Source: an uncultured Streptococcus sp. (GTDB taxonomy: Bacteria > Bacillota > Bacilli > Lactobacillales > Streptococcaceae). From it: a DNA stretch of 64,000 bases. The DNA is taken from NCBI GenBank assembly GCA_963533195.1, contig CAUSOG010000002.1, positions 18,853 through 82,852 of the forward strand, written 5' to 3'. Below are positions 1,346 to 50,594 of the stretch, piece by piece (the stretch's first letter is position 1; every line of letters starts with the position of its first letter). The position numbers were made by a program, and so were the translations under genes. The notes beneath the pieces were generated by a model, which did not search any database, was not told the origin of the DNA, and worked only from the letters and a program-made list of their open reading frames with translations.

Positions 1346-1430
1346 TATTGTTGAATATTCTACATGAATTTTTATTAAAAAGCAAGAGGAAAATTGAAAA
1401 AAATTAATTATTTTTTCCTTTCTAAATAAA

Positions 1431-1736: not shown

Positions 1737-1769
1737 AGGCTTCTTTCCTTTCTGGACACGACAAACTAA

Positions 1770-8722: not shown

Positions 8723-8923
8723 AGCCTGCCTTTTCCTCTAGAAAATATAGGAACATTATACCATTTTTACCGATAATTCTCATGAGCTATACTTTCAAAG
8801 CCGGGGCAAACTTTATCGCTAAAATAGTACTTCTCTGACAAGCATGCCGCACCAAGAAATAAATGAAAAAGCCACTGCCTCCAGTGACTTCCTAAAGTCT
8901 CTTACTTCTTTACAAGTAAGTGC

Positions 8924-9235: not shown

Positions 9236-9281
9236 ACGCTAAATCTCCCGGTTCTATTTTCTTAATGCTAACTGAAGCACA

Positions 9282-10127: not shown

Positions 10128-10161
10128 ATTTTTTTCTTCTCCACTACTCGTATTCAATTAA

Positions 10162-10704: not shown

Positions 10705-10732
10705 AAGATTGCACTCCTTGCATAGTTAAAGC

Positions 10733-11143
10733 TTAATCGTTATTATTACGAAATGAATGTTCAGAAACCCATTTTGAGTAGCTTTTTAAATTTTGCTCAG
10801 ACAGTGATTCAACCGCTATTCTTACACACATTTCAACTGCTTCTTCAAGCGTAACAGCAAAATGATAACCGTTTAATCGTAAAAATTTTACTAAGACATA
10901 AAAAGCCGTTCGTTTATTAGCACTAGCAAAAACATGCTTTTTTATCAATTGAACAAATAAAATTGTCGCCTTATCAAATATTGATGGATAAAGAGGTTTT
11001 CCAAAAACAAATTGTTCAGGTAAGTTCACAATCATATTTAGTGCTGATGGACTAATCATCTTGATTTGTTCTTTTGGAGAATAGCGCTGAATAACTAAAG
11101 TATTAATCTTTTCAATTTGAATTTCTGTTAAATAGACTGTCAT
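10733..11143 (-). CDS. Type II TA toxin, Doc/Fic family
   Basis: HVFASANKRTA Fic/Doc-type motif; overlaps antitoxin stop. Confidence 0.88.
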   Translation of the reverse strand: MTVYLTEIQIEKINTLVIQRYSPKEQIKMISPSALNMIVNLPEQFVFGKPLYPSIFDKATILFVQLIKKHVFASANKRTAFYVLVKFLRLNGYHFAVTLEEAVEMCVRIAVESLSEQNLKSYSKWVSEHSFRNNND

Positions 11144-11376
11144 TTTTCCACCAAAGCTTTAAAAATATCGTTGTATTCATCAAAAATATTATCTAAATCC
11201 AATTCAAAAGATTCGTCCGAAATATAAGTAACCTGATTTTCAGTCTTTTCCGGAGTAAAGACAATTTCGCCACTCGGTAACAATTTAGCATCGTAATGCA
11301 CGCCACTCGGAATATTAAATTCACTTGGAATCGTTATTGTTATAGAATTCCCTTGTTTTCTAGTTTTTACTGCCAT
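11140..11376 (-). CDS. AbrB/MazE-type antitoxin
   Basis: KTRKQGNSITITIP swapped-hairpin N-terminus, acidic C-terminus. Confidence 0.88.
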   Translation of the reverse strand: MAVKTRKQGNSITITIPSEFNIPSGVHYDAKLLPSGEIVFTPEKTENQVTYISDESFELDLDNIFDEYNDIFKALVEK

Positions 11377-11494
11377 CTTGCTTCCTCCTAAGGGATATTA
11401 TAACAGATAATTACAGTAATTACAAAATAGAATAATCTTTCGACTTATCTTATTTAGAATACATCATGGGATTAAGATATTAGCTAAACACATC

Positions 11495-13252
11495 TCAAAT
11501 GCAAGACTCATCACAACAAACTACAAATCCCTTTGGTAAGATGAGAACTTGTTGGTCATCAGTTTGGCAATGACTCACCAAATCAGCTGAATCTCTGTCT
11601 AAAAGATAATTCTCATTCGACTGATTAAAAATGGCTCTGATTGCTTGATGATCATGTTCCCATTCTAAAGCCAGCACATTAGGCTTGATTTCTTCTAGGG
11701 TAAATTTCCCATACTGAATAATGCCCGCAACATCTTTGCGAAGCTGAATCAAGTTCTTCATAAAATTGAGCATATCATTGTTATTGAAAACCCGGTCCCA
11801 AGGCATGACCCGTCTACAATCCGGGTCCATAGCTCCACCCAATTCTAGCTCGGTCCCATAATAGATACAAGGCGTCCCTCTTTGTAAAAAGAGAAAGGCT
11901 AGTGCGGATTTGACAAGCTGGATATCTCCTTGAGCTGTCGTCAAGATGCGCTCCGTATCATGCGAATCCAAGAGATTAAACATAACCTCAGAAATTTGCT
12001 GCTTGTAGTACATGGACTGGCAATTAATCTCAGCTATAAATTGACTGGTCTTCTTGCTCCTACTCAAAAAGTAGTCCTTGATACTATCCGATAGAGGATA
12101 GTTCATGACCGCGTGAAACTCATCTCCATTTAACCAAGGCTGAGAGGTATGCCAAACTTCTCCAAGAATATAAAGGTCAGGCTTTTGGGCCAAAACAGCC
12201 TTACGAAAATCTCGCCAAAATTGATGATCAACCTCATTGGCTACATCCAGTCGCCAAGCATCAATATCAAAATGTTCAATCCAATAGGTCGCAACGCTTA
12301 AAAGATAGTCTTTCACCTCAGGATTTGCCGTGTTTAACTTAGGCATATAGCTGGCAAATGCAAAGGTATGATAAGGCAGTTCTTTTGGATTCACAAGCTT
12401 GTCATTCGTCACTGGGAACTTTTGAATGTGGAACCAGTCTTTGTAAGCTGACTTTTCACCATGCTTGAGAACATCCTGCCATTGAGCGGATTGATCGCCC
12501 ATATGATTGAAAACTGCATCCAGCATGACCTTCATGCCACGCTGATGAGCTTGATCCACCAGTTGACGGAAAGTCTCCTTGTCCCCAAAGTGTCGATCAA
12601 TTTCAAAGTAATCTGTCGTATTGTATTTGTGATTGCTTGACGATTCAAAGATGGGACAGAGGTAAAGCCCTGTAATGCCTAAGTCTTGCAAATAATCCAG
12701 ATGCTCAATAATCCCTTGTAAATCCCCACCAAAGAAATCCATACTTTTAGGTGTGATAGATGAATCCCAATCTAGAGCTCCTTCTGGTGAAAGTTCAGCA
12801 TTCCCATTGGCAAATCGTTCTGGAAAAATCTGATACCAGACCGTTTTTGAAACCCAGTCAGGAACCTGACAACCATCAATTTCGTGAATATAAGGAAGCT
12901 TAAAGCCATTGCCCTCTAAAGCAAGGTTTTCTGGACTTTTGTCAGCGAAACCTTTATCCCCATATAATATGCTCTGGCCTTCTTTATCTCTCAGCTCAAA
13001 CAGATACTGAATCCGAGCAAAGCGCACAGAGACAGCTACTTGCCAATAATCAAATAAGGCATCAGAGGTCACTTTGACCATCTCTTTCACATCTTCATAA
13101 GAATCCTCAAGAAAGATAAAGGGATCGCCATAGTGCAAAACGATTTTCTCTAGATCATCTTTCTTAGTCCTAATTCTGATATGCACTTGACCTTCTTTAT
13201 AAAGATAGGCATACTCCGACTCCGGCCTGTGGTAAATGGCTGTTAATTCCAT
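11495..13252 (-). CDS. GH13 neopullulanase/cyclomaltodextrinase
   Basis: YQIFPERF, DAVFNH, AWRLDVANE, GEVWH, LLDSHD conserved regions. Confidence 0.93.
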   Translation of the reverse strand: MELTAIYHRPESEYAYLYKEGQVHIRIRTKKDDLEKIVLHYGDPFIFLEDSYEDVKEMVKVTSDALFDYWQVAVSVRFARIQYLFELRDKEGQSILYGDKGFADKSPENLALEGNGFKLPYIHEIDGCQVPDWVSKTVWYQIFPERFANGNAELSPEGALDWDSSITPKSMDFFGGDLQGIIEHLDYLQDLGITGLYLCPIFESSSNHKYNTTDYFEIDRHFGDKETFRQLVDQAHQRGMKVMLDAVFNHMGDQSAQWQDVLKHGEKSAYKDWFHIQKFPVTNDKLVNPKELPYHTFAFASYMPKLNTANPEVKDYLLSVATYWIEHFDIDAWRLDVANEVDHQFWRDFRKAVLAQKPDLYILGEVWHTSQPWLNGDEFHAVMNYPLSDSIKDYFLSRSKKTSQFIAEINCQSMYYKQQISEVMFNLLDSHDTERILTTAQGDIQLVKSALAFLFLQRGTPCIYYGTELELGGAMDPDCRRVMPWDRVFNNNDMLNFMKNLIQLRKDVAGIIQYGKFTLEEIKPNVLALEWEHDHQAIRAIFNQSNENYLLDRDSADLVSHCQTDDQQVLILPKGFVVCCDESCI

Positions 13253-13296
13253 ATTTTTATCTCCTAGATTTCTCTATTTAAACTCATCACAACTTT

Positions 13297-13352
13297 ATGC
13301 AAACGATTCCATAATCTAGCCCTAGTATACTATTTTAAAAAAATGATTGCAA
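13297..13352 (-). promoter_or_regulatory. Promoter TTGCAA-N17-TATACT with downstream LacI-family (MalR/cre-like) operator
   Basis: ATGCAAACGATTCCAT at 13297-13312 resembles the MalR site GCAAACGTTTTCC; lies upstream of a maltodextrin enzyme. Confidence 0.6.
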
Positions 13353-13482
13353 GTTGTGGGCTAGTTTATGAGCAGGAGCTTATCTGTGCAAGTTAAAAAG
13401 CCTTGGAGATAAGGCTTAATAGTAGTTTCAATTTTGAGATTTCATTTAATTCTTTTCTTTTTCCAAATTGATATTCCAACCC

Positions 13483-13920
13483 TTATTCAGTATTATTCTT
13501 GTTCATATACCAACTTGGGACTAATCGGTTCATATAATCATACCATTCTAAAATTTCCTTAGCTTGATTTTGCATTACTGATACTTCTTCTTCTCCATAA
13601 GGAATAGCCCATGGAAGAGCTCCAATTAAGTTACTTAGAATGTAAACGGCAAGAAGTTTCCAAAATAAATCTGGAACTTTGTCATCAAAATATCCATTTA
13701 TCATACCTGATGCAAAAGAGGGAGATACTTGAGCTGACCACACAATACGATTGAACTCCTCCCAAGGATCTCCAAAGTCAAAACGATCAAAATCAATCAC
13801 ATAAATCTCACGATCCTCTCCAATCATGAAATTCCCAATATGATAATCACCATGTTGCAAAACTTGGGGTCTATTTTTTAGCAGTTCACGGTTTTCGTTC
13901 AAAAAATCAATGAAGACCTG
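13483..13920 (-). pseudogene. 5'-truncated aminoglycoside-phosphotransferase-family kinase
   Basis: Retains HGDYHIGN and IDFDR motifs; frame reads QVFIDFLNENR back to ~13920, then meets an in-frame TAA; N-lobe absent. Confidence 0.8.
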
Positions 13921-13984
13921 ATGTTAGTATGATTGGAGTTCTGTCAATATTTTGGACACATAGAAAAGGAACAATGTATTCTTA

Positions 13985-15610
13985 CTAAACCAAGTCGTTT
14001 AAGTCGATACATTCATCAAACAAAGATGCTAGTTCATCATTCAAATGATGAGTTACAAATAGTACTGTCTTACCCCTATCTTTTAAAATATCACGTTCGA
14101 TTTCCTTTCGAATTTGTTCGTCAATTGCAGACGTTCCCTCGTCAATAAGCCAGATTGGTTTGTCCTCTAAAAATAACCTTGCTAGCATAATTCGTTGCTT
14201 CTGACCAGTGGAAATATCAAGTTTAGTTTCAGATAAGATAGTATCTAAACCTTGAGGTAATGTATCAATCCAGTCCTTCAAATAGACCCGTTCTAAGACG
14301 CTATCTATATCTGATTTTTGTATACTTTTACCAAGGGTTAAATTGAAAAATAGTGATTCGTTGAATATATGATCATCAGAAGAAATATAGCTTATGCTCT
14401 CTTGTAAATTTGACAATGAACATTTCTCCGAATTATTGCTGATAAAATAAACATTTCCTTTTGTGGGATGTAATTCTTGATTAATTATCTTTAATAATGT
14501 TGATTTACCAATACCTGATTTTCCAATCATTGCATATTTACGATTAGCACAAAACTTCAATGAAAGATCACTAAATATTGATGAGTTGCTTCGTTCTAAC
14601 GATATATTATCTAAGATAATGCTCCCATTTAATTTTCTACCTTCAAGTGGTAACGAATTATCTACTTCTACTTCACGCCATTCACTATCAATATTTTCAA
14701 ACTTTTCAAAAATTTTATTTACTGACTTGAATTCTGCATAGTTTGCAGTTAGACCAGTCAAACCTGCAAAAATTATTGACGAAAAATACTGTGATGAAGA
14801 TACACCTCCCAGAGGGATTAGTTTAAGGAAATAAAGGCAACCTGCATGAATTAAAATAGCGATTTGACTAATAAAACTTGTACCATTTTGAACAGCCATT
14901 AAACCACCTAAAGTTTTAGCATAATTTATTTTTGCAACTGAATACCTATTCGCAAAATTAATAATTTTTGAAGTCATGAAAGAAATCTTATTATTATTCT
15001 TTAAATTCCTATAGCCCGATAATACGTCATCTACCGCTTGAACTAATTCTTCATTTTTTTCGGAAAAAATCAGAGCATTCTTATCCAGTTTTGAAGTAAA
15101 AATTTTTGGTAGTTTTATCATCGTAATAAGGAAAACTGTAATCGTGAACAACAACGAAAAATGAAAACTAAGAAATGCAATAATTGCAAACAATATATTT
15201 AGTGATTGCATTAACATTAGCTCTAATGTTTCAAATCCAAGATCACTTATTGTCTTAATATCATTTGTCATCCATGATAAGTAGGTAGACTTGCTTTTTT
15301 TCTCGTAATTTTCAATCCCTGCTTCTTCTAATTTTAATGAAATATCTTTTCTTATCTCATTACACATGGCTTGAATAGCTTTTTCATTTGCTTTTGAACC
15401 TTGATAAATTTGAACCACCCACAATATATTTACTAACAAAATTGCGGTACTGTAAATAATAAACTCTCTCAAGTTAAAATTTACCAGTGTTGTTATTGCT
15501 CTGGCACTAAGCATTCCATTTAAAAACACACAGAGTGAATTAATAAAAATCCAAAACAGCCAAATTAAATTTTCTTTCTTACATCTAATTAGATATGTCC
15601 TAATATTCAA
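13985..15610 (-). CDS. ABC exporter (TMD+NBD), LanT-like, no C39 peptidase domain
   Basis: N-terminal TM segments, GKSGIGKST, ISTGQKQR signature, LIDEGTS; TTG start overlaps lanC stop. Confidence 0.88.
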   Translation of the reverse strand: MNIRTYLIRCKKENLIWLFWIFINSLCVFLNGMLSARAITTLVNFNLREFIIYSTAILLVNILWVVQIYQGSKANEKAIQAMCNEIRKDISLKLEEAGIENYEKKSKSTYLSWMTNDIKTISDLGFETLELMLMQSLNILFAIIAFLSFHFSLLFTITVFLITMIKLPKIFTSKLDKNALIFSEKNEELVQAVDDVLSGYRNLKNNNKISFMTSKIINFANRYSVAKINYAKTLGGLMAVQNGTSFISQIAILIHAGCLYFLKLIPLGGVSSSQYFSSIIFAGLTGLTANYAEFKSVNKIFEKFENIDSEWREVEVDNSLPLEGRKLNGSIILDNISLERSNSSIFSDLSLKFCANRKYAMIGKSGIGKSTLLKIINQELHPTKGNVYFISNNSEKCSLSNLQESISYISSDDHIFNESLFFNLTLGKSIQKSDIDSVLERVYLKDWIDTLPQGLDTILSETKLDISTGQKQRIMLARLFLEDKPIWLIDEGTSAIDEQIRKEIERDILKDRGKTVLFVTHHLNDELASLFDECIDLNDLV

Positions 15611-16785
15611 CTTATGTCTCCTCTACAATTTATACCAAAAATCTCTTCACCAATAATTCTTCTTTTAAATTTGAGCGATAGAGCAACCAGTGCGATACCA
15701 AGTTTACCATCTAGTATTCCCCATTCGCTATATTCTGATAAAACCTCATTTTCAAAATAGTTTGATTCTATTAATTTTACAAATTCCTCTGATTCATCAG
15801 ACGTAATAACATCACAACACGAATAGAACGTGCCAGACAACCCATGACAAAAACTAACATTATTGGTTTTCTTTCTGCATCTAACTAATCTTTGAGCTTC
15901 ATCCAAAAGCATATTTAAAAGACTATCTTTAATCACATAATCATTATTTTTTAAAAAAATATAATGACCATACAGTCCATAACACCATGAATAATTTATA
16001 GTATCACTAGAATATATTGGAGTTATATTCATTTTTTCGTCTACTGTAATGTATTCCGAAATTCTAAAACTTAAGTTACTAAATCGTTTATAAACATTCT
16101 CAATAAAACTCAAACTATATCTATAAAAATTGATATTAGAGAAATCAAAAAATGTGAGTGAATTAAAAAGCGAAATAATTCCATGCGACATACCAAAATT
16201 TATAGGAATAGCCTCTTTGGAACGATTTTTAAAACTTTGTTGTCCTTCTTCTACTGTTGTCGCTATTTCATAAATTCTCAATTTATCAAAAATTTCTATT
16301 ATTTTTCCCATCAAATCATCCGGGAGACTGAACTGCCGATTATAGTTTTTTAAAGATGTAAAATAGATTAGTCCTCCCGCTAGTCCATAAATTATATCCA
16401 CATTATAGCAACTTTGAAAATCTTCTATCTTATCCTCCACAAAAGTTCTAATGATACTTTCAGCAACTAAATTTAATTCTTGTGATAAATATTCAAATAT
16501 TTTGTTATTTGAATACTTACACCATAAATTTAATACAAAAGCAAAACCTAGCGGACCAGACCATAAGCCTCTATTTTCCCTATTTACAACCAAATTTAGG
16601 TTCATTTTTCGTATTACACTAATAGCAAGTTCTTCGTAGTATATATCCTTATCTATTGAATATAGATTAAGTAGTAACAACAAGTATCCTGAAGCACCAT
16701 TTAGTAGAGAAATATCTTCAAAATTAGAAAAATTCTCTAAACAATCCTTAATTGATATCAATTCTAATTCCGTTTTTTGCCGCAT
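15607..16785 (-). CDS. lanC: Lanthionine cyclase LanC
   Basis: GMSHG, WCYG and FCHG (catalytic His and Zn ligands), repeated GxxG motifs; GAGG RBS inside lanB 3' end. Confidence 0.92.
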   Translation of the reverse strand: MRQKTELELISIKDCLENFSNFEDISLLNGASGYLLLLLNLYSIDKDIYYEELAISVIRKMNLNLVVNRENRGLWSGPLGFAFVLNLWCKYSNNKIFEYLSQELNLVAESIIRTFVEDKIEDFQSCYNVDIIYGLAGGLIYFTSLKNYNRQFSLPDDLMGKIIEIFDKLRIYEIATTVEEGQQSFKNRSKEAIPINFGMSHGIISLFNSLTFFDFSNINFYRYSLSFIENVYKRFSNLSFRISEYITVDEKMNITPIYSSDTINYSWCYGLYGHYIFLKNNDYVIKDSLLNMLLDEAQRLVRCRKKTNNVSFCHGLSGTFYSCCDVITSDESEEFVKLIESNYFENEVLSEYSEWGILDGKLGIALVALSLKFKRRIIGEEIFGINCRGDIS

Positions 16786-19627
16786 TAAGTACCTCTAAAA
16801 TATAGTTTCTATACCTAAATTCTAAATCTAAGTCACCAAATAATCTATTGAAGTGCATATGTAATAGACTATCCGCTAGCTGTTCGTATGGGACTGTTCG
16901 CAGATTTATTATTGATTTCAGTAAATCTTTACACTCTTTATATGATTTCAACCCTTGACATCTAGAATAATAGTTATTATTTCTCAATTCAGACTTTATT
17001 AAGTTAGCTTCAGATTTATCTAATTTATCGGATTTTTGTCGGAAAATAAATTCCTGATTTTCTATTTTATCTAAGAAAAGTTGTAATAAACCTATCGCTA
17101 CATAAACATTAAGACTTTTGAACTCAGTGTTGCTTAAACTTCCTTTTAATTTTAAAATATCTAAACATAACTTAGAATCCACCATAAAGAATTTTTCAAT
17201 TAAGTTATAATTGCCAGCTCCGTATCTTTCATACTCTCTCTCGTAGGGGCAAATAGAATAGTCATCAATGTACTCTAAAGTTAATGCTATACTAATAAAA
17301 GAAAAGACTTCTTGTAGAGAATTAGTACCATTCCCATGAAGATATATCCTCAACCTGATGTGTGGTCTATCATCTTGATACCTTATATAGAACCAATTAG
17401 AAATACTATTTGTTGAAACATAATCAGCTATGTACTCTAAAAGATAATTTTGTAAATTTTTAGAACAATATAATTTAACATAAAACCACCCTTCACCATC
17501 CAAAAGACTTTGAAATCTATCTTTATTATCTATAACAGGATTAATACGGTAATCACTAGCCTTTATATTATTATCAAATAAAGTAACTGTTAATTCAGAA
17601 GCAAATCTACCTTCTGGGGATCTACCATATATAAATCCTAAATCTTCATAAATTTCAATCATCTCCTCCCTTCTAAAGATTTCTTCCAATAATTCCATAT
17701 CTAGACGTCTAGTTATATCTAGGTTCAATATTTGATCATTTATTGCTAAAGCAAACTGACTAGGTACACCGATTCTATTTAAAAATTCCAACAAAGATTC
17801 AGAAGAACTCTCTTTATATAGCTTTTGATACAATGTCCACTTCTCAGGTATAATAATAATATTATTGAAAACAATTCTTTTTTGATGTAAAGGTGATAAT
17901 GATTCTAATTTTGATAAAAAGCCACCTATTCGATCGGTCTGTGAGTTAAGTAAACCTAAAAATTTTATATAATCATTGCTCAAATCTAAGTTCATCATAC
18001 CTCTCATATCCACAATGATTCTATTCCCACTATTATCATGTAAGTAAAATTCATAATTGCTTGATATTCCAACATATACATCTGATAAAGATAAATCCAT
18101 ATCGTTATTCTTATATGTGTTGATAATTATATTATTTTTATAGCGATTCTTATTTGCTGTAACTATATTCTTTATCTTTTTATCTTTGGGATAGTATATG
18201 ATTCCATGAGTAAAAGAGGGAATTTCATTCAACTCTAGAAAATCAAATCGCCCATGATAACCTCTTGGAGTCCTAGAATACGCTGAACGTCCTAACGAAA
18301 ATATAATGTTTTTATCACTACCATATATGTTAAAATTCAAATCGAATCCTCTTATATTTTCATTACGATTTGCATTTTTTAACTTTGCTAAATTAAATAC
18401 TTCTTCTTCATCAAATTCATACAAAGCCTTTAAATCATCTTCCCATAACTTTTCTTCTCTTAGATTTTGATCAATTACAATATCCTTACTAAATGGAGAA
18501 CCTAGTCCTTTAATATCATCAAATAATTCAACAAGATTTACAGACTTATAATAACCATATCGCTCAGAGAATATGTCCTTATATTGTTCAAGCTGGACTC
18601 TGTCTCTACTATAGGACTTATTAAAATCAGACATAACAAAATCCGCAAATTTTGTTATATTTCGAATTTTATCATTTGATAATGAAATTGAGTTTTCAGT
18701 TGATAACTCTTCATTGATTATATATTTTTCAGAAATGTCTATCTCTTGTAATAGATAATCTATTTTTTCTAAAATATCTAGACTTTTACTTTTAGAATAT
18801 GAATCCATTAATTCCAAAAGACTACCTAAGTATTCAATAGATTTTAAATGTTTACGTGATGTCTCTATAAGTCGCAAGACAGTGTCAATATTCATATCAA
18901 GAGGATATATATTGAGAATTATAAGCTTTTGTTTAAGAAGCTCTTTTAGAAAATCTATTACCAACGATTCGGAATATTGCGGGAATTCAGAAGTTAAAAG
19001 AATAATCAAATCTGATAACGTATAACTGTTCTTCGTTAAAGAATCAATAAGCAAGTTTAGCACATCATTTTTGTAAAAGTATAATCTATTTCCCTCACTT
19101 GCATCTTCAATAATCGATGGTAGATAAAAATCAAAAAAGTTTCTTCTATTTTGTGTTGCAGCGTTCAAATAACACTTCAAATAACTTTTTTTAAAATCTA
19201 ATATATCCAATATTTCATAGTAAAAATAATCTAAAATTTCGGGCGCTAAATATATATGACTTCTTGTCTTTCCTAATATTTTTAAACAATCTTGACCTGA
19301 TTTTTTATGTAAACTCGCCTTACCAATCTTTGCAAAACTTCCAAACGGAGTTGCTCTATAGGCTGCTCTTAATATATATTTATAAAGTGATAGACAAATT
19401 TTTCTTTGTTTTTTAATACTATACTTTCTAATATTTTGCAAATTCGAAATAAACACTGGTGAGGCTATATAGATTGCTTTTTTTAATTCTTCGTTTACTA
19501 ATACTTGATTAACCAGATGAATATAATCTTCTTTTACGAAGTAATGGTCTAATTCTGGTATCAATTTCTCTATATCGTTAATATGGAAATTACTTACTCT
19601 TACTATAGCATCATTGGATATTATCAT
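16748..19627 (-). CDS. lanB: Class I lanthipeptide dehydratase LanB
   Basis: 959 aa; YILRAAYRATPFGSFA, WFYIRYQDDRPHIRLR, YEREYERYG, LLHMHFNRLFG. Confidence 0.95.
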   Translation of the reverse strand: MIISNDAIVRVSNFHINDIEKLIPELDHYFVKEDYIHLVNQVLVNEELKKAIYIASPVFISNLQNIRKYSIKKQRKICLSLYKYILRAAYRATPFGSFAKIGKASLHKKSGQDCLKILGKTRSHIYLAPEILDYFYYEILDILDFKKSYLKCYLNAATQNRRNFFDFYLPSIIEDASEGNRLYFYKNDVLNLLIDSLTKNSYTLSDLIILLTSEFPQYSESLVIDFLKELLKQKLIILNIYPLDMNIDTVLRLIETSRKHLKSIEYLGSLLELMDSYSKSKSLDILEKIDYLLQEIDISEKYIINEELSTENSISLSNDKIRNITKFADFVMSDFNKSYSRDRVQLEQYKDIFSERYGYYKSVNLVELFDDIKGLGSPFSKDIVIDQNLREEKLWEDDLKALYEFDEEEVFNLAKLKNANRNENIRGFDLNFNIYGSDKNIIFSLGRSAYSRTPRGYHGRFDFLELNEIPSFTHGIIYYPKDKKIKNIVTANKNRYKNNIIINTYKNNDMDLSLSDVYVGISSNYEFYLHDNSGNRIIVDMRGMMNLDLSNDYIKFLGLLNSQTDRIGGFLSKLESLSPLHQKRIVFNNIIIIPEKWTLYQKLYKESSSESLLEFLNRIGVPSQFALAINDQILNLDITRRLDMELLEEIFRREEMIEIYEDLGFIYGRSPEGRFASELTVTLFDNNIKASDYRINPVIDNKDRFQSLLDGEGWFYVKLYCSKNLQNYLLEYIADYVSTNSISNWFYIRYQDDRPHIRLRIYLHGNGTNSLQEVFSFISIALTLEYIDDYSICPYEREYERYGAGNYNLIEKFFMVDSKLCLDILKLKGSLSNTEFKSLNVYVAIGLLQLFLDKIENQEFIFRQKSDKLDKSEANLIKSELRNNNYYSRCQGLKSYKECKDLLKSIINLRTVPYEQLADSLLHMHFNRLFGDLDLEFRYRNYILEVLNAAKNGIRIDIN

Positions 19628-19641
19628 AAAATCTCTCTCCT

Positions 19642-19713
19642 AAAAAAGTATCTATTCTTAGTTATACAAATAATATATTACTATTTGTTAATAACAAGAA
19701 CAGATACTTTTTT
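19642..19713 (-). terminator. Long hairpin plus U tract between precursor gene and lanB RBS
   Basis: AAAAAAGTATCT.TTCTT.GTTAT..ACAAATA / TATTTGT..ATAAC.AAGAA.AGATACTTTTTT imperfect inverted repeat. Confidence 0.75.
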
Positions 19714-19773
19714 CTTTTTTCTCAATTTACCAGATTGCAATAAATTTTGAAAATCATTTAAAATTGCAATTTT

Positions 19774-19908
19774 TTAATGACAGCTTGGTGTTGAAGAACA
19801 TCCACCTGAACCGCCTGTATGCTTCACTCTCTGTTCTGATTGTCCAATAGACAATGTTTTAGTATCAATTTTAAGTGTTACTAACAACTCGTTTTTTACA
19901 TTTTCCAT
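19774..19908 (-). CDS. Lanthipeptide precursor LanA (44 aa; not in ORF track)
   Basis: AGGAGG RBS; MENVKNELLVTLKIDTKTLSIGQSEQRVKHTGGSGGCSSTPSCH*; Cys-free leader and Ser/Thr/Cys-rich C-terminus; immediately upstream of lanB. Confidence 0.9.
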   Translation of the reverse strand: MENVKNELLVTLKIDTKTLSIGQSEQRVKHTGGSGGCSSTPSCH

Positions 19909-19966
19909 CTGGAATACCTCCTATATTTTTTTAAAACTATGTGAGCAATCTGTTTTCTACCATAGC

Positions 19967-20010
19967 TTTCCACTAAGTATTAATCTGATTACGTTAATAT
20001 TTAGTGGAAA
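19967..20010. repeat. 17-bp inverted repeat between pheromone gene and lanA
   Basis: TTTCCACTAAGTATTAA-N10-TTAATATTTAGTGGAAA, one mismatch. Confidence 0.8.
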
Positions 20011-20055
20011 ACCAGGGGAATAATTTAATTATTACATCTCCCCAATATTTCCTAT

Positions 20056-20184
20056 CTATTTAGTTTGACCATTAGCTGGACCTGGATCAACCCCATTATA
20101 GACTGAAGATCGTGTAATAGGACTCCTTACAAATGCAAAAGAGAGCAACAAAGTAATAATAAAGAATTTAGATAAGCGTTTCAT
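20056..20184 (-). CDS. PhrA-like RRNPP signalling peptide precursor (42 aa; not in ORF track)
   Basis: AAGGAG RBS; MKRLSKFFIITLLLSFAFVRSPITRSSVYNGVDPGPANGQTK*; basic plus hydrophobic signal-like N-terminus; C-terminal NGVDPGPAN parallels PhrA SNGLDVGKAD. Confidence 0.82.
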   Translation of the reverse strand: MKRLSKFFIITLLLSFAFVRSPITRSSVYNGVDPGPANGQTK

Positions 20185-20212
20185 CGTAACTGCTCCTTAA
20201 TTTGTTTTCTCA

Positions 20213-20241
20213 ATTATAGCTCAGTAAAAACATTTTGTCAA
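20213..20241 (-). promoter_or_regulatory. Consensus sigma-A promoter of the pheromone/lan operon
   Basis: TTGACA (20241-20236), 17-nt spacer, TATAAT (20218-20213). Confidence 0.85.
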
Positions 20242-20422
20242 TTATTTTTATAGCTATTTCTTATATTTTTTTTTTTTTTATGCACATATTGCATGTGGAT
20301 TGGTGTGTTAAATCAATTTCGATATACTAAAACGGTGAGTAAGAGAAAAATAGTAAGTAAAGTTTAATATGAGTCTCAATTCATGGGCAACACCACTCTC
20401 ATAAAATACAACAAAAAATCAA

Positions 20423-22349
20423 GAGTCTGGGACAATAGTCCCTTTGCTACAAAAAAAGCAACGGATTTTTTTCGTTGCTTTTTGCATGGTTGCGATGGTC
20501 TTGCTAAAATGGAATTGCTCAATTAAACATTTAGAAAGGCTATCCCATGCACATTCACTATAACAAAATTCAAACGACTTTACCACTAGAACTTGCTTGC
20601 ATTTTACCACAATACCATATTGTCTTTACCATGGAAAAAGTGGTGAATGCCTTGAAGTAATGATGATAGAAAATATCGCCATGCAGTACTTAACAGGACA
20701 GTTGCTTGTCAGTTACCACACCGTCAATCGCTTTCGAGTCGCTGTGGGGATGGAAAACCTCATTCGTGATCTTTTCATTGACCTCAATCTTCGTTTAAAA
20801 TTAGAAGAGTTTGTGACTTTATACTTAACAAAAATCTAAATTGTACGTATAATTGAAGTATGACAAAAACAACATTTACTCCAGCGGACAAAACACTTCT
20901 CACAGAAGCACTCAAAGATAAGAAAAACGTGCGTTTTCATAAACGCATTCAGTGTGTGCTATTTCGGATAGACGGCTTAAGCTATCGCAAAATCGCCGAA
21001 TTAACAGGGCTTTCCCCTCAAACGGCTTCCAATCAAGTGTAGCGCTACCAAGACCAAGGACTAGCTGCACTCTTAACAGACAAGCGTGGTGGGAGCTTCC
21101 GTTATTACATGACTCATGATGAAGAGATTGATTTTCTTGCAGAGCAGTTCAAGAAGGCGAGCGAAGGTGAGTGGTTAACCATTAAATCTCTTCACGAAGC
21201 CTATCAAGCCAAGATTGGTAAGAAAACGACTAGAGAGGGATTTTATGCTCTTCTCAAGCGACATGGTTGGCGAAAAATTATCCCCAGACCGGAACATCCA
21301 CAGAAAGCAGACGCTCAAGCAATTGTGACGTCTAAAAATAAAATCCTTGTACGAGAGCACATGCAAACGATTGCCTCATAAAAGAGTGCGACTGCTTTAC
21401 CAAGACGAGGCCGGATTTGGACGAATTAGTAAACCAAGTGCTTGTTGGGCTCCAAAAGGAATCAGACCCAATGTTCCTTGTCACCATGTTCGTGAATTTC
21501 GCTATTGTTATGGAGCCGTCGATGCGCATACAGGAGATGCCTTTTTCATCATTGCAGGCGCTTGTAACACCGCTTGGATGAACGAATTTTTACAGCAATT
21601 ATCTGCCTATTATTCTGATAGTTACCTGATTTTGGTCATGGATAACGCTACATGGCACAAGTCTCAGGCTTTGGATTTGCCAGAAAATATCGAGTGTACA
21701 TTTATTCCTCCCTACACGCCAGAAATGAATCCCATTGAGCAAGTTTGGGCGGAGATACGAAAGCGTGGATTCAAAAACAAGGCCTTCAAATCTCTAGAAG
21801 AAGTCATTTTGAAGTTAGAAGCAGTGATTCGAAACTTAGAAACAGAGTTTCTGAGGAGGATTGTTCACAGAAAGTGAATTTGTCCAGAATAGATTTTTGG
21901 TGAGTATTAGATTGTCTGTTTATTGATGGCACTATGATTGAAGCCAACGCCAACAAGTATAGTTTCGTATGGAAAAAGGCCACAGACAAGTTTTCCGTCA
22001 AACTTCAAGAACAGATACAGGTCAATTTCCAAGAAGAAAAATCACCCCCCTTATCCATCAGGCGATTGCGCTGGATGAAAAAGAACCTATTGCCTCAGAA
22101 CAGTTGACCGAGTTCGCTCAACGTAAGATTGATGCGGAACCTGTCTTTGGGCAGATAAAGGCTTGTTTGGGTTAAAAGAGATGTAATCTGAGAGGTAAGC
22201 GTCAAGTGAAAATTGACATTAGTTTAGTGCTCATGACCAATAATCTCCTTAAATACAATAAGAAAACGGTTCAAAATTAAAAAGCTAAAGTTCACATAAT
22301 TGGGAACCTTTAGCTTTTTTGTGACTGAGAACTATTTTGTCTCAGACTC
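20423..22349 (+). mobile_element. Degenerate IS1182-family element interrupted by an IS630-family element
   Basis: Terminal IRs GAGTCTGGGACAA / TTGTCTCAGACTC; fragments MHIHYNKIQTTLPLE, YHTVNRFR, DCLFIDGTMIEANANKYSFVWKK, QRKIDAEPVFGQIK; internally deleted. Confidence 0.85.
20822..21906 (+). mobile_element. IS630-family insertion sequence (transposase pseudogene)
   Basis: IRs TACTTAACAAAAATCTA / TAGATTTTTGGTGAGTA flanked by TTA; HTH ORF with in-frame TAG at 21040-21042; DDE ORF with QDEAGFG, MDNATWH, PPYTPEMNPIEQVW. Confidence 0.9.
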
Positions 22350-22405
22350 GTGAAATATTTTTTTCTCAGACTTTTCTATATACTCTTAATTCTTACAAAA
22401 TAGCA

Positions 22406-23293
22406 CTATAGAGACGAAAAATTTTCATACAAGTATCTACTTAACTCTAAACTCATCTTCTCGTTGTTAGCTAGTTGAAAAAGAAACTGTGATCGCTGAT
22501 AATATGCTTTTACCTGTTCTTTCTCGTGAAACCCTTCGCTAATATTACCTAATAAACAGTATAATTCTGCCAATAGGAACCTCGACTGATAGTCGTTACA
22601 GACCTCAATAGTTTCAAGAGTTTCTATAATTGCCTGCTCTGTTCTATTACCTAACAACCATAATTGCCTACAATAATTATATCTAATTTTGATTAAGTTC
22701 TTAAAGTTCTCTATTTTAGATAAATCGCTTCTTTTCAACTCAGCCACTATTTCTATAAACTCTTGTTCTAATTCTATAAAGTTTGAACCCTTTCCTTCCA
22801 ATAAAAAATTTAATAATGTATTCTTTAGATACAGATGAGAGTCTATTTGACTACCTATTTGAGAAATTATTTTTCTCAATTTTTTCAAACCCTCTTTTTG
22901 TTTTTTATCATAATAGAACAAAACTAACGATTCAACCCAAGTAAGATATATTTTATCAGAAAGAGAATATTTTATCGATTTTTGAGTAGATAATTCCAAA
23001 TCAAGTATATACTTAACTGAGGCAAAATCCTGTAATTCAATGTGTTTTTCTAATATTTCTTTCAATTGTGTAACCTGAGAAGTCTCTACACTAATTGTCT
23101 TATCATAAAAATAGTCTAATGTAACATCTAATCTCTGAGCCAGTGAATGTAATAAATCTGAATTTGGAACATATTTCCCCTGTTCAATTCTACTAATTTT
23201 AGCCTGCTCACATAATCCCTGAGCAAGTTCACTTTGTGATAAATGAAGCTCTAAACGACGCTCTCTCATTCTAGTTGCTAGTAAACTATTCAC
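22406..23293 (-). CDS. TprA/PlcR-like RRNPP transcriptional regulator (XRE HTH plus TPR-like helices)
   Basis: RRLELHLSQSELAQGLCEQAKISRIEQGKYVPNSDLL..LDYFY; 295 aa, helical C-terminus; GTG start with AAGGAG RBS. Confidence 0.85.
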   Translation of the reverse strand: MNSLLATRMRERRLELHLSQSELAQGLCEQAKISRIEQGKYVPNSDLLHSLAQRLDVTLDYFYDKTISVETSQVTQLKEILEKHIELQDFASVKYILDLELSTQKSIKYSLSDKIYLTWVESLVLFYYDKKQKEGLKKLRKIISQIGSQIDSHLYLKNTLLNFLLEGKGSNFIELEQEFIEIVAELKRSDLSKIENFKNLIKIRYNYCRQLWLLGNRTEQAIIETLETIEVCNDYQSRFLLAELYCLLGNISEGFHEKEQVKAYYQRSQFLFQLANNEKMSLELSRYLYENFSSL

Positions 23294-23595
23294 ATATTAC
23301 TCCTTATATTTGATTTAGTACAGTTAACTACTGCCAAAGCCTAAGCTATACACTTAGAATAAGTCATTATGAAACAAGCTCACCTGCCAGTGAGTTTGGA
23401 CTTGTGGAGATTACCTAGTATAAGACGCGACAACACCTCCATCATTCATGTCATTAAAATTCCTCAGAATCCCACCTTGTTGACTAAAAATAACTTCTCA
23501 TTTCATGAGAATAAGCTATGTCAAACTTGATTTTCCTTAATTTTTAGTTAACTTTATACTTAGTTTTTATTTAACTCAATTATACAACATTTGCT

Positions 23596-25494
23596 CTACC
23601 AAATTTTAACTCTATCAATTTCACATCTCCACATAGAATCTCCTTGAGCAACTCCAAATGTATCATGAAACTCCTTAAGATTAGATAGTGGGACATTAAC
23701 TCTTTCCTCATTTGGAGAATGAACATCTAAAACTTCTTGAATTTCTCCATACTCCTTATTCAATATCGAGCGATGACATCTTGCAAAGGTTGTAAAGAAA
23801 TCTTCCAAACTATACTCTTCTCTACCCATCAATGAATTAAGTGAACAAATCAATCCTGCTAAGTCAGCTATATCTTCAGAAATAGTCATCTTATTAACTA
23901 AATTTTTATCTTTTACAAGATATTGTTTATTGAGTTTGCTAGAAATTTTCATCAACTCTTGATAATCAGAATCTAACCACCAGCTTCCTCTATTCCCATC
24001 CGAATCAAACATTGAACCATTTAAGTCAAAAGCATGTGAGATTTCATGTGCAATCAGAGTTCCTAAGCCACCATAATTTTGAGACAAAGTATAGTCAGTC
24101 GAAAAAAATGGTTCATTAAGTATCGCAGCTGGAATAATTATCATATTTCTTCTAAAATCATATAAAGCATTTACTGTATGTGCTGAAATACTCCACTGAT
24201 TTCTATCAGTTGGTTTATTCCATTGTTTCCACATATAGCTAATAGAATTTGCGAGAATCATTTGTATATTTTCAATTAAAGTTTTATCCAAATTTATTTT
24301 TTTAAATTGATATGTAGGTGGCAAATTACTTGGCTTCCCAACTTGAATATTCATTTTATCTAATTTTTCTAAAGTTATTTTTTTAGTACTAGCTGATAAC
24401 CAAGTATTTGCTAAAAGCTCTTTTCTATACTCTTCTATAAGATCTTCAACTATTCTTTCAACTCTTAAAAAAATATCCTTTGAAAAAAAATTATCTGCAT
24501 ACCAATTTCCTATAGCTTGCATATATAAAGACTGTGCTAAATAGAATGCTTCCTTATCTTTCTTTCTTACTTCTTTGATTCCGTAAAGGTATCTTCCAAA
24601 TTCACCAGAAGAAATGCGAATCTCTTCAGTTAGATAAGCAGCGTAAGTAAGGATAACCTGATAAATCAGCAATGATTTTATATATTTCCAGTTCTCAGAA
24701 CAAAAAATTTTTCTTGAATTTTTCCAAAACTTCTCTTCAGCTACTATGATAACATCAGGTATTTCTCCTATTAAATTATAAAAGTATCTTCCAAAATCAA
24801 TTTCTTCATTCCAACTATTGAACTCAGAGAAGGGGTATATATTATATATTTTGTTATAATCGGACATTTCTTCTTTAGAAATATTTAACTCAGATACTAT
24901 TCTATCTAAATAGATAATATCATCCAGCATGCTCTCTGCTTCTTCTAATTCGAATCCAAAATTTGAAATTAATTTAAGCTGGCATTGTTTCCATTTTTGA
25001 ATTAGATTATTGCCATATTGATATTGATCTGTATAAAATAGTGTATCTGGCAATATAGTTTTTAGTCCCCAAGCCCAAAGTACATTTGTATTTGACTTTT
25101 TAAAATCTGGCTCAATTGAAAATGGCATTAAAGATGGATTACCAGATAACTCTAACTCAGGTAATTTGGCAATAAAATCAGCAAAGCTCTCTATGCCTTG
25201 ATACAAATCTAAAATTTTTTTAATTGGCTCTATGCCAATCTTATCTCTTTTTTCAAAGTCAGATATGAGTGTATAGTATTTAATAAATTCAACCATGTAA
25301 TCATCACTAGCAATAAGTTCAGTCATATTTGTAAAACTATCTTGAGATACAGACAAAAGCTTTTGAATTTTTTTTTCAATATCTACTTGAATTTCTGTAA
25401 ATGAATCCATTTCAGCTAAATCAGATGGTATTATGGCCGACTTTTCCCACTTCTCATTTACAAATCTATAAAAATTATTATTTGCAGTCATCAT
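23596..25494 (-). CDS. M13 family zinc endopeptidase (PepO/neprilysin-like), island-borne
   Basis: NFYRFVNEKW, VNALY, HEISHAFD, EDIADLAG, DVHSP; no signal peptide; AT-rich. Confidence 0.92.
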   Translation of the reverse strand: MMTANNNFYRFVNEKWEKSAIIPSDLAEMDSFTEIQVDIEKKIQKLLSVSQDSFTNMTELIASDDYMVEFIKYYTLISDFEKRDKIGIEPIKKILDLYQGIESFADFIAKLPELELSGNPSLMPFSIEPDFKKSNTNVLWAWGLKTILPDTLFYTDQYQYGNNLIQKWKQCQLKLISNFGFELEEAESMLDDIIYLDRIVSELNISKEEMSDYNKIYNIYPFSEFNSWNEEIDFGRYFYNLIGEIPDVIIVAEEKFWKNSRKIFCSENWKYIKSLLIYQVILTYAAYLTEEIRISSGEFGRYLYGIKEVRKKDKEAFYLAQSLYMQAIGNWYADNFFSKDIFLRVERIVEDLIEEYRKELLANTWLSASTKKITLEKLDKMNIQVGKPSNLPPTYQFKKINLDKTLIENIQMILANSISYMWKQWNKPTDRNQWSISAHTVNALYDFRRNMIIIPAAILNEPFFSTDYTLSQNYGGLGTLIAHEISHAFDLNGSMFDSDGNRGSWWLDSDYQELMKISSKLNKQYLVKDKNLVNKMTISEDIADLAGLICSLNSLMGREEYSLEDFFTTFARCHRSILNKEYGEIQEVLDVHSPNEERVNVPLSNLKEFHDTFGVAQGDSMWRCEIDRVKIW

Positions 25495-25671
25495 ATCTCC
25501 TTGAGTTTTGATAAAATTTTCAGATACAATCTTATCATAAAAGAATTAACAAAGCAACAAAATAGAAAATATAGATATACTTTTTCAAAGAAATATGTTA
25601 AAATAAACAAAACAAATCTCTATTTATTTAAAAATAATATATCAAAAAACAAGAAAGTAGTGTTATAGACA

Positions 25672-26628
25672 ATGATTAGTGCTTTTTCAATTGACGATAA
25701 AAAAAGTAACATCGCTCGAATTATTTCTGAACACCGTAGTGAATACATACTCGGATTTCAAAATAATGATACCCAAAAAATCCGCAAACTTAGTTTAAAA
25801 AATCAGCTTTATCATATAGGAGACTTTATTAAGTATTCTGTTATAAATAACTCTATTTCAAATATAGAATTGTTACCTCGGAAAAATGTAATTTGTAAAT
25901 CTAGTAATACAACTAAAAAAAGCTATAACTTCTCTGAATCTAATCAAATTTTAGCCACAAATGTTGATCAACTCTTTATATTTATTCCTCTTGATAAAAA
26001 TTTTTCTCTGTCAAAAATTGAAAGATATATTTTAGTCTTTTCTCAACAAAATGTTAATGTAACAATTGTGCTAAGTAAAAAGGATCTTTTTTCAAATTAT
26101 AAAGAATATCTGTCTAAAGTTAAACAATTATATCCTAAGATTAATATTTGTCCTATCAGTTTATATGACGAATTATCTATCAAAAAATTCAAAGAATTAC
26201 TAATTCCTGGTAAAACAGGTATGTTTATTGGCTCATCAGGAGCAGGAAAATCTAGTTTACTTAATCACCTACAAACAAATTATACTGCAAGAGTTAATAA
26301 TGTTCGAAATGACTATAAGGGAAAACACACAACAACTAGTAGTTTAATCATTTTCTGTCCAGAGATAGAATACAATATTATTGATACTCCTGGTTTTAAA
26401 GGTATTGATACAACTTTAGATATTGATAAGAAAATATTGTTTGAAGAAATAGAGGAATGTGCTAAATATTGTAAATTTAACGATTGCTTACACCTTACTG
26501 AACCTAAATGTGCAGTAAAAGAAGCGGTCAAAAATAATATTATTAGACCAGAAATACTGGAAAGATATCACTATAACATTAAAAAGCTCGAATTATTATC
26601 TAAAAGAAGAGCCAGCTGGAGATTATAA
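25672..26628 (+). CDS. RsgA-family circularly permuted GTPase, probable accessory paralog
   Basis: ATNVDQ, SKKD (G4), GSSGAGKSS (G1), GKHTTT, DTPG, CKFNDCLHLTEPKC zinc finger. Confidence 0.9.
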   Translation: MISAFSIDDKKSNIARIISEHRSEYILGFQNNDTQKIRKLSLKNQLYHIGDFIKYSVINNSISNIELLPRKNVICKSSNTTKKSYNFSESNQILATNVDQLFIFIPLDKNFSLSKIERYILVFSQQNVNVTIVLSKKDLFSNYKEYLSKVKQLYPKINICPISLYDELSIKKFKELLIPGKTGMFIGSSGAGKSSLLNHLQTNYTARVNNVRNDYKGKHTTTSSLIIFCPEIEYNIIDTPGFKGIDTTLDIDKKILFEEIEECAKYCKFNDCLHLTEPKCAVKEAVKNNIIRPEILERYHYNIKKLELLSKRRASWRL

Positions 26629-26677
26629 TTTACAAAAACACACTCACAGTTGCCTCATCAAAAACTTTAATTGCTTA

Positions 26678-26730
26678 ATTTCAACTATTAGGAAAGAATT
26701 TAAAAATTGTACTTTCCTAATAGTTGAAAT
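26678..26730. terminator. Perfect 19-bp inverted repeat after the RsgA-like gene
   Basis: ATTTCAACTATTAGGAAAG-N15-CTTTCCTAATAGTTGAAAT. Confidence 0.7.
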
Positions 26731-26926
26731 ACAAAAGCTTCTAGAGAATGAACTGAATTACTATGAAAAACTGTTTTCCTTTTTGCTGTAGGGTACTTTG
26801 AATTTTTAAAAAAATTCAAATAATGGGATTGATAAAATGAAAAAAGCTATTAGAATATTTGATATTTTAGGGGAAGAACATTTGAAAATTCAATACAGTG
26901 AACACTATGCTAATCTCATAAATTAA
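26712..26926 (+). pseudogene. C-terminal remnant of an Rgg/GadR/MutR-family regulator
   Basis: Across two A-run frameshifts reads FLIVEIQKLLENELNYYEK/TVFLFAVGYFEFLK/NSNNGIDKMKKAIRIFDILGEEHLKIQYSEHYANLIN*. Confidence 0.65.
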
Positions 26927-27164
26927 AAATTTTATATCGTTGTACTTACCAACAATGAATTCAAAGATCATACCATTATCCAGTTTCTCTCTTATTACAA
27001 GAGACAGTATTTACTTATCCTCGGGAAACTCTTTATTACAGTATTATTTTTTTTACCTACTAGTAGTCTATGGTAATAAAACCACATATTTTAATCAAGT
27101 TTTCAGTATTATTCCAATAACCTCAACTTGAGTGCTCGCTTTTATACATCCCCACCACAAAGCA

Positions 27165-27188
27165 AAAAGCCTTGCAATCAAGGCTTTT
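27165..27188 (-). terminator. Intrinsic terminator after rlmD
   Basis: AAAAGCCTTG-CAAT-CAAGGCTTTT. Confidence 0.75.
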
Positions 27189-27213
27189 CATTATCCCTTT
27201 CGTTCAAAGGTTT

Positions 27214-28629
<1,416 letters not shown>

Positions 28630-28653
28630 CTACCTTTCATTATATCATATATC

Positions 28654-50562: not shown

Positions 50563-50594
50563 ACTTATTTATCCTTTTCCACTCCAAAACAACA

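Follow-up and report, generated by a model that had tools for sequence, protein, structure and literature searches.

An AT-rich block in an uncultured Streptococcus that probably carries a pheromone-controlled class I lanthipeptide system between streptococci

The subject of this report is an AT-rich block of ~12.7 kb within a 64,000-nucleotide stretch of DNA from an uncultured Streptococcus sp. (GenBank assembly GCA_963533195.1, contig CAUSOG010000002.1, positions 18,853 to 82,852; hereafter the window, whose coordinates we use unless a locus is named), and its genes resemble those of several described lanthipeptide systems. Among the class I (LanB/LanC) lantibiotics, which include mutacins I and III, the nisin cluster (NisABTCIPRKFEG) combines LanA, LanB, and LanC with a transporter that has no peptidase domain, a hairpin between lanA and lanB, a LanP protease, LanI and LanFEG immunity functions, and LanRK control. 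In the TprA/PhrA and TprA2/PhrA2 systems of S. pneumoniae, a PlcR-family regulator and a small secreted peptide are encoded immediately upstream of a lanthipeptide operon (lanA/lanM/lanT or lcpAMT) which is class II (LanM) with a C39 transporter; PhrA is described as being exported by Sec and imported by AmiA-F, and as freeing the lantibiotic operon downstream from repression by TprA (PMC11323143), while the heptapeptides are given as LDVGKAD for PhrA and VDLGLAD for PhrA2, and the TprA2 and PhrA2 genes as lying on opposite strands (PMC5436883). In the mutacin operons (I, II, and III/1140) of S. mutans, LanRK is replaced by the MutRS pair, in which a regulator senses the peptide in the cytoplasm and a short gene encodes the pheromone; MutR is Rgg-type, mutS is convergent, and the mutacin operons carry immunity genes such as mutF (PMC11848300).

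Our reading, to which we would assign a probability of roughly 0.7, is that mobilisable or conjugative elements carry the block as cargo from one streptococcus to another, and that its genes specify a class I lanthipeptide system which is under pheromone control and belongs to a family not yet described. Compared with the systems above, i) the block has, like TprA/PhrA, a PlcR-family regulator with a pheromone motif (VDPGPAN) akin to LDVGKAD and VDLGLAD and a strong promoter that fits repressor control, but its biosynthetic genes encode a class I LanB and LanC and a NisT-like ABC protein; ii) unlike phrA2, the island pheromone gene (phr) is co-directional with the regulator gene, and belongs to a DPGPAN subtype which has 2-4 residues after the motif and occurs elsewhere beside ThiF-family and MFS genes; iii) as in the mutacin operons, a regulator and pheromone gene stand in place of LanRK, so that the MutRS precedent makes this form of control known in kind, but the regulator is PlcR/TprA-type and immunity genes are missing; and iv) LanA-LanB-LanC, the peptidase-free transporter, and the lanA-lanB hairpin are shared with the nisin cluster, whereas LanP, LanI, LanFEG, and LanRK are not, the core peptide has only 15 residues with two Cys, and LanB is distant (129 bits). 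What is new is the lanthipeptide family itself, its control by a TprA-type (DPGPAN) pair, the lack of a dedicated protease or immunity gene in any lineage, and the association between a paralog of the GTPase RsgA and the exporter. The block would define a hitherto undescribed family of class I lanthipeptides, with a near-invariant 15-residue core and carried by mobilisable elements among streptococci, show that pheromone control of the TprA/PhrA type extends beyond class II lanthipeptides to class I, and reveal a widespread DPGPAN pheromone subtype ahead of varied gene sets; the pairing of RsgA paralog and exporter, if functional, would be a new kind of accessory protein for RiPPs, peptides made by the ribosome and modified after translation.

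Open reading frame (ORF) calls together with Pfam and NCBIfam profiles found the island gene set intact, with the genes, coordinates, and strands given in an earlier note that had been made from the letters of the window without database searches; the features, including insertion sequence (IS) remnants and RNA elements, are as follows.

13970-26667, no strand: cargo block shared with S. caprae (locus L003, 4844-15659), from blastn and GC content
13985-15610, minus: LanT-like ABC half-transporter, 541 amino acids (aa); ABC_membrane and ABC_tran, no C39 peptidase domain
15607-16785, minus: LanC cyclase, 392 aa; LANC_like PF05147 (1.7e-26), full length
16748-19627, minus: LanB dehydratase, 959 aa, full length; Lant_dehydr_N and Lant_dehydr_C
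19642-19713, minus: AT-rich hairpin with U6 abutting the lanB ribosome-binding site (RBS), an attenuator or terminator between lanA and lanB; 18-nt inverted repeat, 94%
19774-19908, minus: lanA precursor gene, 44 aa; good RBS; 29-residue leader and core HTGGSGGCSSTPSCH
19960-20017, minus: strong hairpin between phr and lanA, -23.7 kcal/mol, no U-tract after it
20056-20184, minus: 42-aa precursor of a Phr-type pheromone; N-terminus like a signal peptide, ending ...NGVDPGPANGQTK
20213-20241, minus: sigma-70 consensus promoter TTGACA-17-TATAAT upstream of phr; 12/12, the best site in 13.7 kb
20421-22350, plus: nested IS remnants, an IS630-family transposase in three pieces (20860-21877) within a weak IS1182-like fragment; DDE_3, HTH_33, NF033545
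22406-23293, minus: TprA/PlcR-family RRNPP regulator, 295 aa; HTH_3
23596-25494, minus: M13 (PepO-like) zinc endopeptidase, 632 aa, no signal peptide; Peptidase_M13_N and Peptidase_M13
25672-26628, plus: RsgA-family GTPase paralog, here called RsgA2, 318 aa; RsgA_GTPase 5.9e-37, TIGR00157 135 bits (cut-off 100)

The same note had described the genes as AT-rich, with lanB, lanC, and the ABC gene overlapping, and had found no LanP and no LanI/LanFEG. All of this was borne out: the GC fraction is 0.26-0.32 over 14001-27000, the IS excepted; the overlap is 38 nt between lanB and lanC, and 4 nt between lanC and the ABC gene; and no S8/LanP, LanI, LanFEG (ABC-2), or LanRK domain was found by the Pfam and NCBIfam scan of the island ORFs, nor in the related cluster (L005/G005) described below. 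The genome as a whole has ~46% GC, and the window outside the block is mostly at 0.40-0.52, with lower values at 9001-14000, 50001-51000, and 61001-64000; over the IS the GC fraction is 0.34-0.43, and 0.43 in the IS itself.

A LanB-pattern scan of 185,579 species genomes returned 246 pattern matches, one of which was confirmed. This is Streptococcus caprae CCUG 67170 (L003), which carries the eight genes in identical order at 91-93% nucleotide identity, but without the IS; blastn aligns the window to it in three long segments of 91-93% and one 78-nt segment of 82%. The homology begins ~35 nt past the RsgA2 stop codon and ceases ~20 nt past the ABC stop codon, and the flanks beyond are unrelated. 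Since all eight genes recur there in unchanged order at ~92% nucleotide identity, the block is not a chance grouping; moreover, dN/dS between window and S. caprae is 0.07-0.24 for all eight genes (lanA 0.07, M13 0.11, ABC and RsgA2 0.15 each) and dS is similar throughout (0.18-0.29), which together argue that the eight genes were inherited as a single block, and that all were kept functional. In S. caprae the block is bordered by MobC and a relaxase on one side, and by a sigma-70-region-4 protein and a tyrosine integrase on the other, and therefore lies inside an integrative mobilisable element. The nearest relative (G407) matches the flanks of the island at 93-94% (window 408-13417 and 27220-28928), and has between those flanks 5.2 kb of other DNA with a CAAX protease and ABC transporters. 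No direct repeats or att sites were seen at the island ends. The IS, absent from S. caprae, disrupts no coding sequence; its insertion point falls within a hairpin that in L003 lies 3′ of the regulator gene.

The chromosomal site is variable. It has an alpha-amylase-family gene on one side and a methyltransferase gene of the TRAM/tRNA-U5 type on the other (window 13418-13970 and 26667-27219), and in G407 (locus L075, 13021-18192) contains genes for an ABC exporter, an ABC-2 transporter set, and a CAAX protease instead. Just outside the island, on the minus strand at 13483-13902, is a 139-aa ORF, probably a gene fragment, whose match to the APH phosphotransferase family is confined to the C-terminal part of the profile (positions 155-231 of 239); S. 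caprae does not share it.

The assignment to class I made in the earlier note is supported by each of the biosynthetic genes. LanB matches both dehydratase domains (PF04738, 2.5e-45, residues 45-647; PF14028, 4.7e-34, residues 714-932) and aligns with NisB (4wd9/6m7y) over residues 34-932 at E ~2e-36; LanC, for which phmmer found no match in the PDB, has the GMSHG198, WCYG267, and CHG313 motifs that we take to form the zinc site; and the ABC protein has a Walker A motif, GKSGIGKS, at residue 363. The lanA ORF lies 146 nt upstream of lanB and encodes MENVKNELLVTLKIDTKTLSIGQSEQRVKHTGGSGGCSSTPSCH, with no PDB match at E <= 10; its 15-residue core is Gly/Ser-rich, with two Cys and 6 Ser/Thr. A LanB with both domains, a separate LanC, and an adjacent precursor with Ser, Thr, and Cys together indicate class I membership, thioether rings being predicted. 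The further claim that this is not a described cluster also stood: the core peptide sequence had no match in the full text of published papers, supplements lying outside the search, and a word-indexed search of 5.8 billion proteins found for LanB three close relatives (94, 42, and 41% identity) followed by proteins at 26, 25, and 27%, 6 of 7999 scored candidates having E <= 0.001. The same collection held one LanA cluster, at 91% identity, from which little about rarity can be inferred because small ORFs often go uncalled. The second LanB of the same genome is only 23% identical to that of the island.

Evidence that the lanthipeptide genes and their regulators belong together comes from a more distant lineage. 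A LanB-pattern scan of metagenomes gave 231 pattern matches and three confirmed loci, L004, L005, and L006, of which L004, a partial one, has a LanB of 94% identity, and L005 and L006 have LanBs of 42-43%. The latter two loci encode in order a regulator (39%; HTH_3 and RNPP_C), a 49-aa signal-peptide ORF ending GIDPGPANFK, a lanA product MEKSINDLLVTVKIETTPAKQPEVMLKHTGGSGGCSSTPSCS, LanB, LanC (41%), and an ABC protein (57%), and a complete, one-contig genome of the same genus (G005) carries the L005-type cluster at 99.6% identity. Regulator-phr-lanA-lanB-lanC-ABC are thus common to L005, L006, and G005 at 39-63% protein identity, and we conclude from this synteny that these six genes are the conserved module. 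The core peptide is nearly invariant although LanB has diverged to ~42%; it is identical in S. caprae, and in L005/L006 differs at the last residue only, HTGGSGGCSSTPSC[H/S]. Retention of the whole module in L005/L006/G005 also upholds the view, taken in the earlier note, that the regulator and Phr-type pheromone ahead of the lan genes belong to the system. In G005 the cluster adjoins epsilon/zeta, an OLD-TOPRIM/UvrD pair, and a surface-exclusion gene of the PgrA/SEC10 type, and is therefore cargo of the kind found on integrative and conjugative elements (ICEs).

In L005 (15720-20914, as in G005), epsilon/zeta directly follows the lan cluster and is itself followed by an OLD-family ATPase-TOPRIM and a UvrD-type helicase, presumably a Gabija-like pair, PgrA/SEC10 being upstream; this lan cluster accompanies defence genes on a conjugative element. 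A decayed L005-type cluster is present in a further genome (G069, L133, 3109-11921), where the regulator, the last ~50 LanC codons, and an intact ABC gene remain, and a second regulator copy is found ~7 kb away.

The best solved relative of the regulator is PlcR (2qfc, E = 3.5e-15, residues 6-275), and it shares 36% identity (E = 9e-50) with the regulator of locus L061, which adjoins a divergent ORF ending ...SSGLDVGKAD; a match to RNPP_C was obtained only for the L005 homolog. Of 400 genomes of the same genus, 149 have a regulator homolog (E <= 1e-15); identities run from 33 to 48%, plus a single one of 92%. The island Phr ORF (MKRLSKFFIITLLLSFAFV...NGVDPGPANGQTK) shares [LVI]DxGxA[DN] with LDVGKAD and VDLGLAD, and Phr-like ORFs, defined by a signal-peptide-like N-terminus and G[LVIF]DxG, were found beside 19 of the 28 regulator loci scanned (L038-L065). 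GIDPGPAN followed by 2-4 residues ends signal-peptide ORFs at L055/L066, L056, L062, L065, and L063, and other regulator-adjacent ORFs end in GFDPGELY.., GIDPGV[VI]H.., or GIDTGAYY.. By its sequence, we therefore place the island pair within the TprA/PhrA family, broadly understood, and in a co-directional DPGPAN subtype of it. The proposal in the earlier note that RRNPP signalling replaces LanRK holds insofar as the regulator is PlcR/TprA-type and no LanRK domain is present; given the MutRS precedent, it is not new in kind.

The DPGPAN subtype seems to drive different cargo at other loci. Behind the TprA-like regulator and IDPGPAN pheromone of L062 (3063-4744), L065 (3061-4631), and L066 (6199-9377) come either ThiF-family genes, in two genomes, or a 482-aa protein without a family together with an MFS transporter.

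The consensus promoter ahead of phr fits control by a repressor, and its -35/-10 layout and upstream A-tract recur in L003, in L005, and at other Phr loci. Two hairpins punctuate the transcript below it. The one between phr and lanA has kept its position and its TTTCC...GGAAA ends in the window, L003, and L005 (-23.7, -28.2, and -25.1 kcal/mol; z = -5.3 to -8.1) while the sequences differ; the other, between lanA and lanB (-30.9 kcal/mol, z = -7.8), is also present in L003. A hairpin in the latter place is the usual means of raising lanA mRNA above lanB mRNA. The mechanism we propose is one in which the TprA/PlcR-family regulator would repress the promoter ahead of phr; the 42-residue Phr precursor would be exported by Sec and processed; a VDPGPAN-containing peptide, by homology to TprA/PhrA, would be re-imported by an oligopeptide permease and lift the repression; and transcription would then proceed through phr-lanA-(hairpin and U-tract)-lanB-lanC-ABC. 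LanB would dehydrate Ser and Thr, LanC would close at most two thioether rings in the core HTGGSGGCSSTPSCH, the NisT-like ABC protein would export the product, and the leader would be cut after a conserved Lys by a protease not encoded in the conserved module.

Outside that module, the island encodes two further proteins. The M13 peptidase resembles streptococcal and lactococcal PepO in having both domains, the HExxH motif (HEISH at 483), the same length, and no signal peptide, but is island-borne and no more than 38-41% identical to the generic PepO that 224 of 400 genomes of the family possess, no closer relative having been found; with 454 bits against a cut-off of 1000 for the NCBIfam PepO equivalog NF052391, it is a member of family M13 and not a PepO equivalog. 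Catalysis is plausible given HEISH, EDIADLAG near residue 540, and a full-length alignment to bacterial M13 structures. Its genome has two other copies, with which it shares 38% and 27.5% identity, and it is found in one of three lan-family lineages, being absent from the L005, L006, and G005 clusters and from a lan remnant in G944 described below; the only M13 match in the G005 genome is a generic PepO ~120 kb from the lan cluster. Nor did we find M13 within 1.5 kb of any of the 18 closest regulator homologs, or at any of 14 RsgA-paralog loci. The earlier note had suggested that M13 takes the place of LanP and would travel with this LanB clade. The second expectation is contradicted by its absence from the other lineages, and the first is left unsupported, M13 being missing from L005/G005, from G944, and from 18/18 regulator loci. 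M13 is an add-on of this single island lineage; it may turn over the pheromone, remove the leader, or be unconnected with the system.

RsgA2 has the circularly permuted G4-G1-G3 order (SKKD, GSSGAGKS, DTPGF) and the C-terminal zinc finger (CKFNDCLHLTEPKC) of RsgA/YjeQ, all intact, passes TIGR00157, and matches solved RsgA structures at ~1e-24. It differs from RsgA/YjeQ in being a second copy with 26% identity to the housekeeping protein (contig C1, 197 bits), in a ~16-residue insertion before the GTPase domain that is absent from the housekeeping protein, and in its sporadic distribution, often beside ABC exporters; the GTPase and zinc-finger motifs are invariant in 13 full-length paralogs, all of which have the insertion. 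The paralog was found in 14 of 400 genomes of the family (E <= 1e-30), six of them at 40-57% identity, and in 9 of 400 genomes of the order (E <= 1e-45). A separate housekeeping copy, the sporadic distribution, and a location on foreign DNA all indicate that RsgA2 is not the housekeeping 30S-maturation factor.

We surveyed the context of 14 non-island paralog loci in 13 genomes, a set defined without eight weaker matches (29-34%, 368-379 aa; G018, G020, G036, G040, G043, G049, G052, and G064) and a second match in G021. Four of the 14 (G021, G784, G944 contig 10, and G875), from three families, place the paralog directly beside a same-strand homolog of the island ABC gene (34-40%), that of G875 being truncated; in three others, unrelated ABC exporters are adjacent; and three paralog copies are truncated or split. 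G944 has a string of a lanA-like ORF (...HSGSGTSSSTPSY..., Cys lost), a fragmented LanB (30-41%), a split LanC, an intact ABC gene, and an intact RsgA paralog, which resembles, we infer, an orphan immunity or export module left beside decayed lanABC genes. Conversely, among 370 genomes of the order, ten ABC homologs of at least 34% identity include one with the paralog beside it and two with lan genes. The co-occurrence of RsgA with this LanB clade anticipated in the earlier note thus held for G944 and, as ABC-RsgA pairs, for G784, G021, and G875, but not for G005, whose lack of the paralog means that the lan family does not require it. We take the link between paralog and exporter lineage to be real, but not obligate; no record of such an association was found among the literature matches listed. 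Because the paralog recurs beside this ABC lineage, once with a related lan operon, RsgA2 probably works with the exporter or in self-protection, immunity being a role we can only infer. A structure prediction of the ABC-RsgA2 complex scored 0.00, and weighs neither way.

Several observations weigh against our reading of the block and its parts. Specifically, i) the window Phr has 4 residues after the motif, and phr is co-directional with and downstream of the regulator gene, so that the pair is to be regarded as a sister subtype and not as canonical TprA/PhrA; ii) a comparison by eye, without a motif search, revealed no common palindrome across the phr promoter, the M13/RsgA2 intergenic region, and the region upstream of the regulator gene; iii) only two or three independent lan-family lineages are present in the collections searched; iv) no sequencing run contained at least half of the words sampled from 16700-20400 (best share 0.35), and the RNA runs listed contained at most 0.05, so that expression and product of the cluster are predictions; v) BLASTP produced no alignment between the window LanA and the lanA-like ORF of G944, their likeness consisting of position and a short low-complexity motif; and vi) seven of the 14 paralog loci have no ABC or lan gene nearby, nine of the ten ABC homologs have no adjoining RsgA paralog, and the complete G005 genome, with the same core peptide, gave 0 matches to the paralog.

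Of the alternatives, the one that survives best, though we consider it somewhat unlikely, is that M13 and RsgA2 are passengers with no functional link to the lanthipeptide, captured together with the donor segment. Both ends of the shared segment do coincide with gene ends, the segment contains no mobility genes, M13 occurs in this island lineage only, and RsgA paralogs mostly occupy housekeeping neighborhoods (Era/YbeY, RelA, NrdI, ribosomal proteins) without lan genes; but their position beside a 34-40% ABC homolog in three families, and once in a lanB-lanC-ABC-RsgA string, is far from chance, and both M13 and RsgA2 are under purifying selection in both hosts.

It is unlikely, too, that M13 is a dedicated pheromone-degrading enzyme that resets the adjacent TprA/Phr circuit. 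PepO-type enzymes are reported to break down RRNPP pheromones in other streptococci (PMC9173638), and PepO, an M13-family enzyme, is described as controlling XIP abundance in S. mutans; the island M13 is a divergent third paralog without a signal peptide, encoded directly upstream of the regulator gene on the same strand, and such a predicted signal-reset role is as plausible as leader removal. Against it, a terminator-like hairpin separates the M13 and regulator genes, and M13 is missing both from the 18 other Phr/TprA-like loci and from L005, L006, and G005.

A third alternative concerns the product, which might be a small signalling or otherwise non-lytic lanthipeptide in no need of immunity genes, and not an antibiotic. 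We regard this as unlikely as well, despite a short, Gly/Ser-rich core with two Cys that hardly varies between clusters whose LanBs are 42% identical, the lack of LanI/LanFEG in every lineage, and the precedent of TprA2-controlled LcpA, for which a virulence effect but no demonstrated bactericidal role is reported (PMC5436883). The same chromosomal site in G407 holds bacteriocin-type genes (CAAX protease, ABC exporters), and an exporter alone can give self-protection. In addition, the core has a T-P-x-C arrangement which resembles the second ring of nisin-type lipid II binders.

A more specific proposition, to our minds a long shot, is that RsgA2 and the LanT-like ABC protein form a two-gene self-protection and export module in which a ribosome-assembly GTPase fold was recruited to RiPP immunity or export. 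If this were so, the module would have been kept as an orphan pair after biosynthetic decay, hinting at an intracellular, possibly ribosomal, lanthipeptide target. M13 and PepO enzymes usually prefer a hydrophobic P1′ residue. The coherent new architecture suggested in the earlier note, in which M13 replaces LanP as leader peptidase and RsgA2 replaces LanI/LanFEG, is very improbable even though those genes are lacking from the island, M13 and RsgA2 are intact, selected, and co-inherited with the lan genes, M13 could act in the cytoplasm, and ABC and RsgA persist as in an orphan-immunity pattern both where lanA/B/C have decayed (L094) and without lan genes (L034, L095), for M13 occurs in one of three lan lineages and at none of the 18 regulator or 14 paralog loci, G005 encodes the same core peptide without an RsgA paralog, and the Lys|His junction of LanA leader and core is unlike the M13/PepO preference.

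On contig C7 (locus L121, 4000-12500), the same genome has a second class I lanthipeptide island, likewise AT-rich (~28% GC), with ISL3 transposase fragments on its flanks. Its genes are those for a LanB of 999 aa, an 88-aa ORF, an FMN-reductase-like flavoprotein, a LanC of 417 aa, an ABC protein of 563 aa, and a CAAX protease; we recognised no ORF for lanA, in whose expected place an ISL3 fragment lies. Elsewhere in the window, low GC (0.30-0.40) at 62001-64000, 9001-11000, and 50001-51000 may mark further foreign DNA. On the minus strand at 10733-11376 (GC 0.36), the start of a Fic/DOC ORF (136 aa) is overlapped by a 78-aa ORF without a family, and the two look like a toxin-antitoxin pair.

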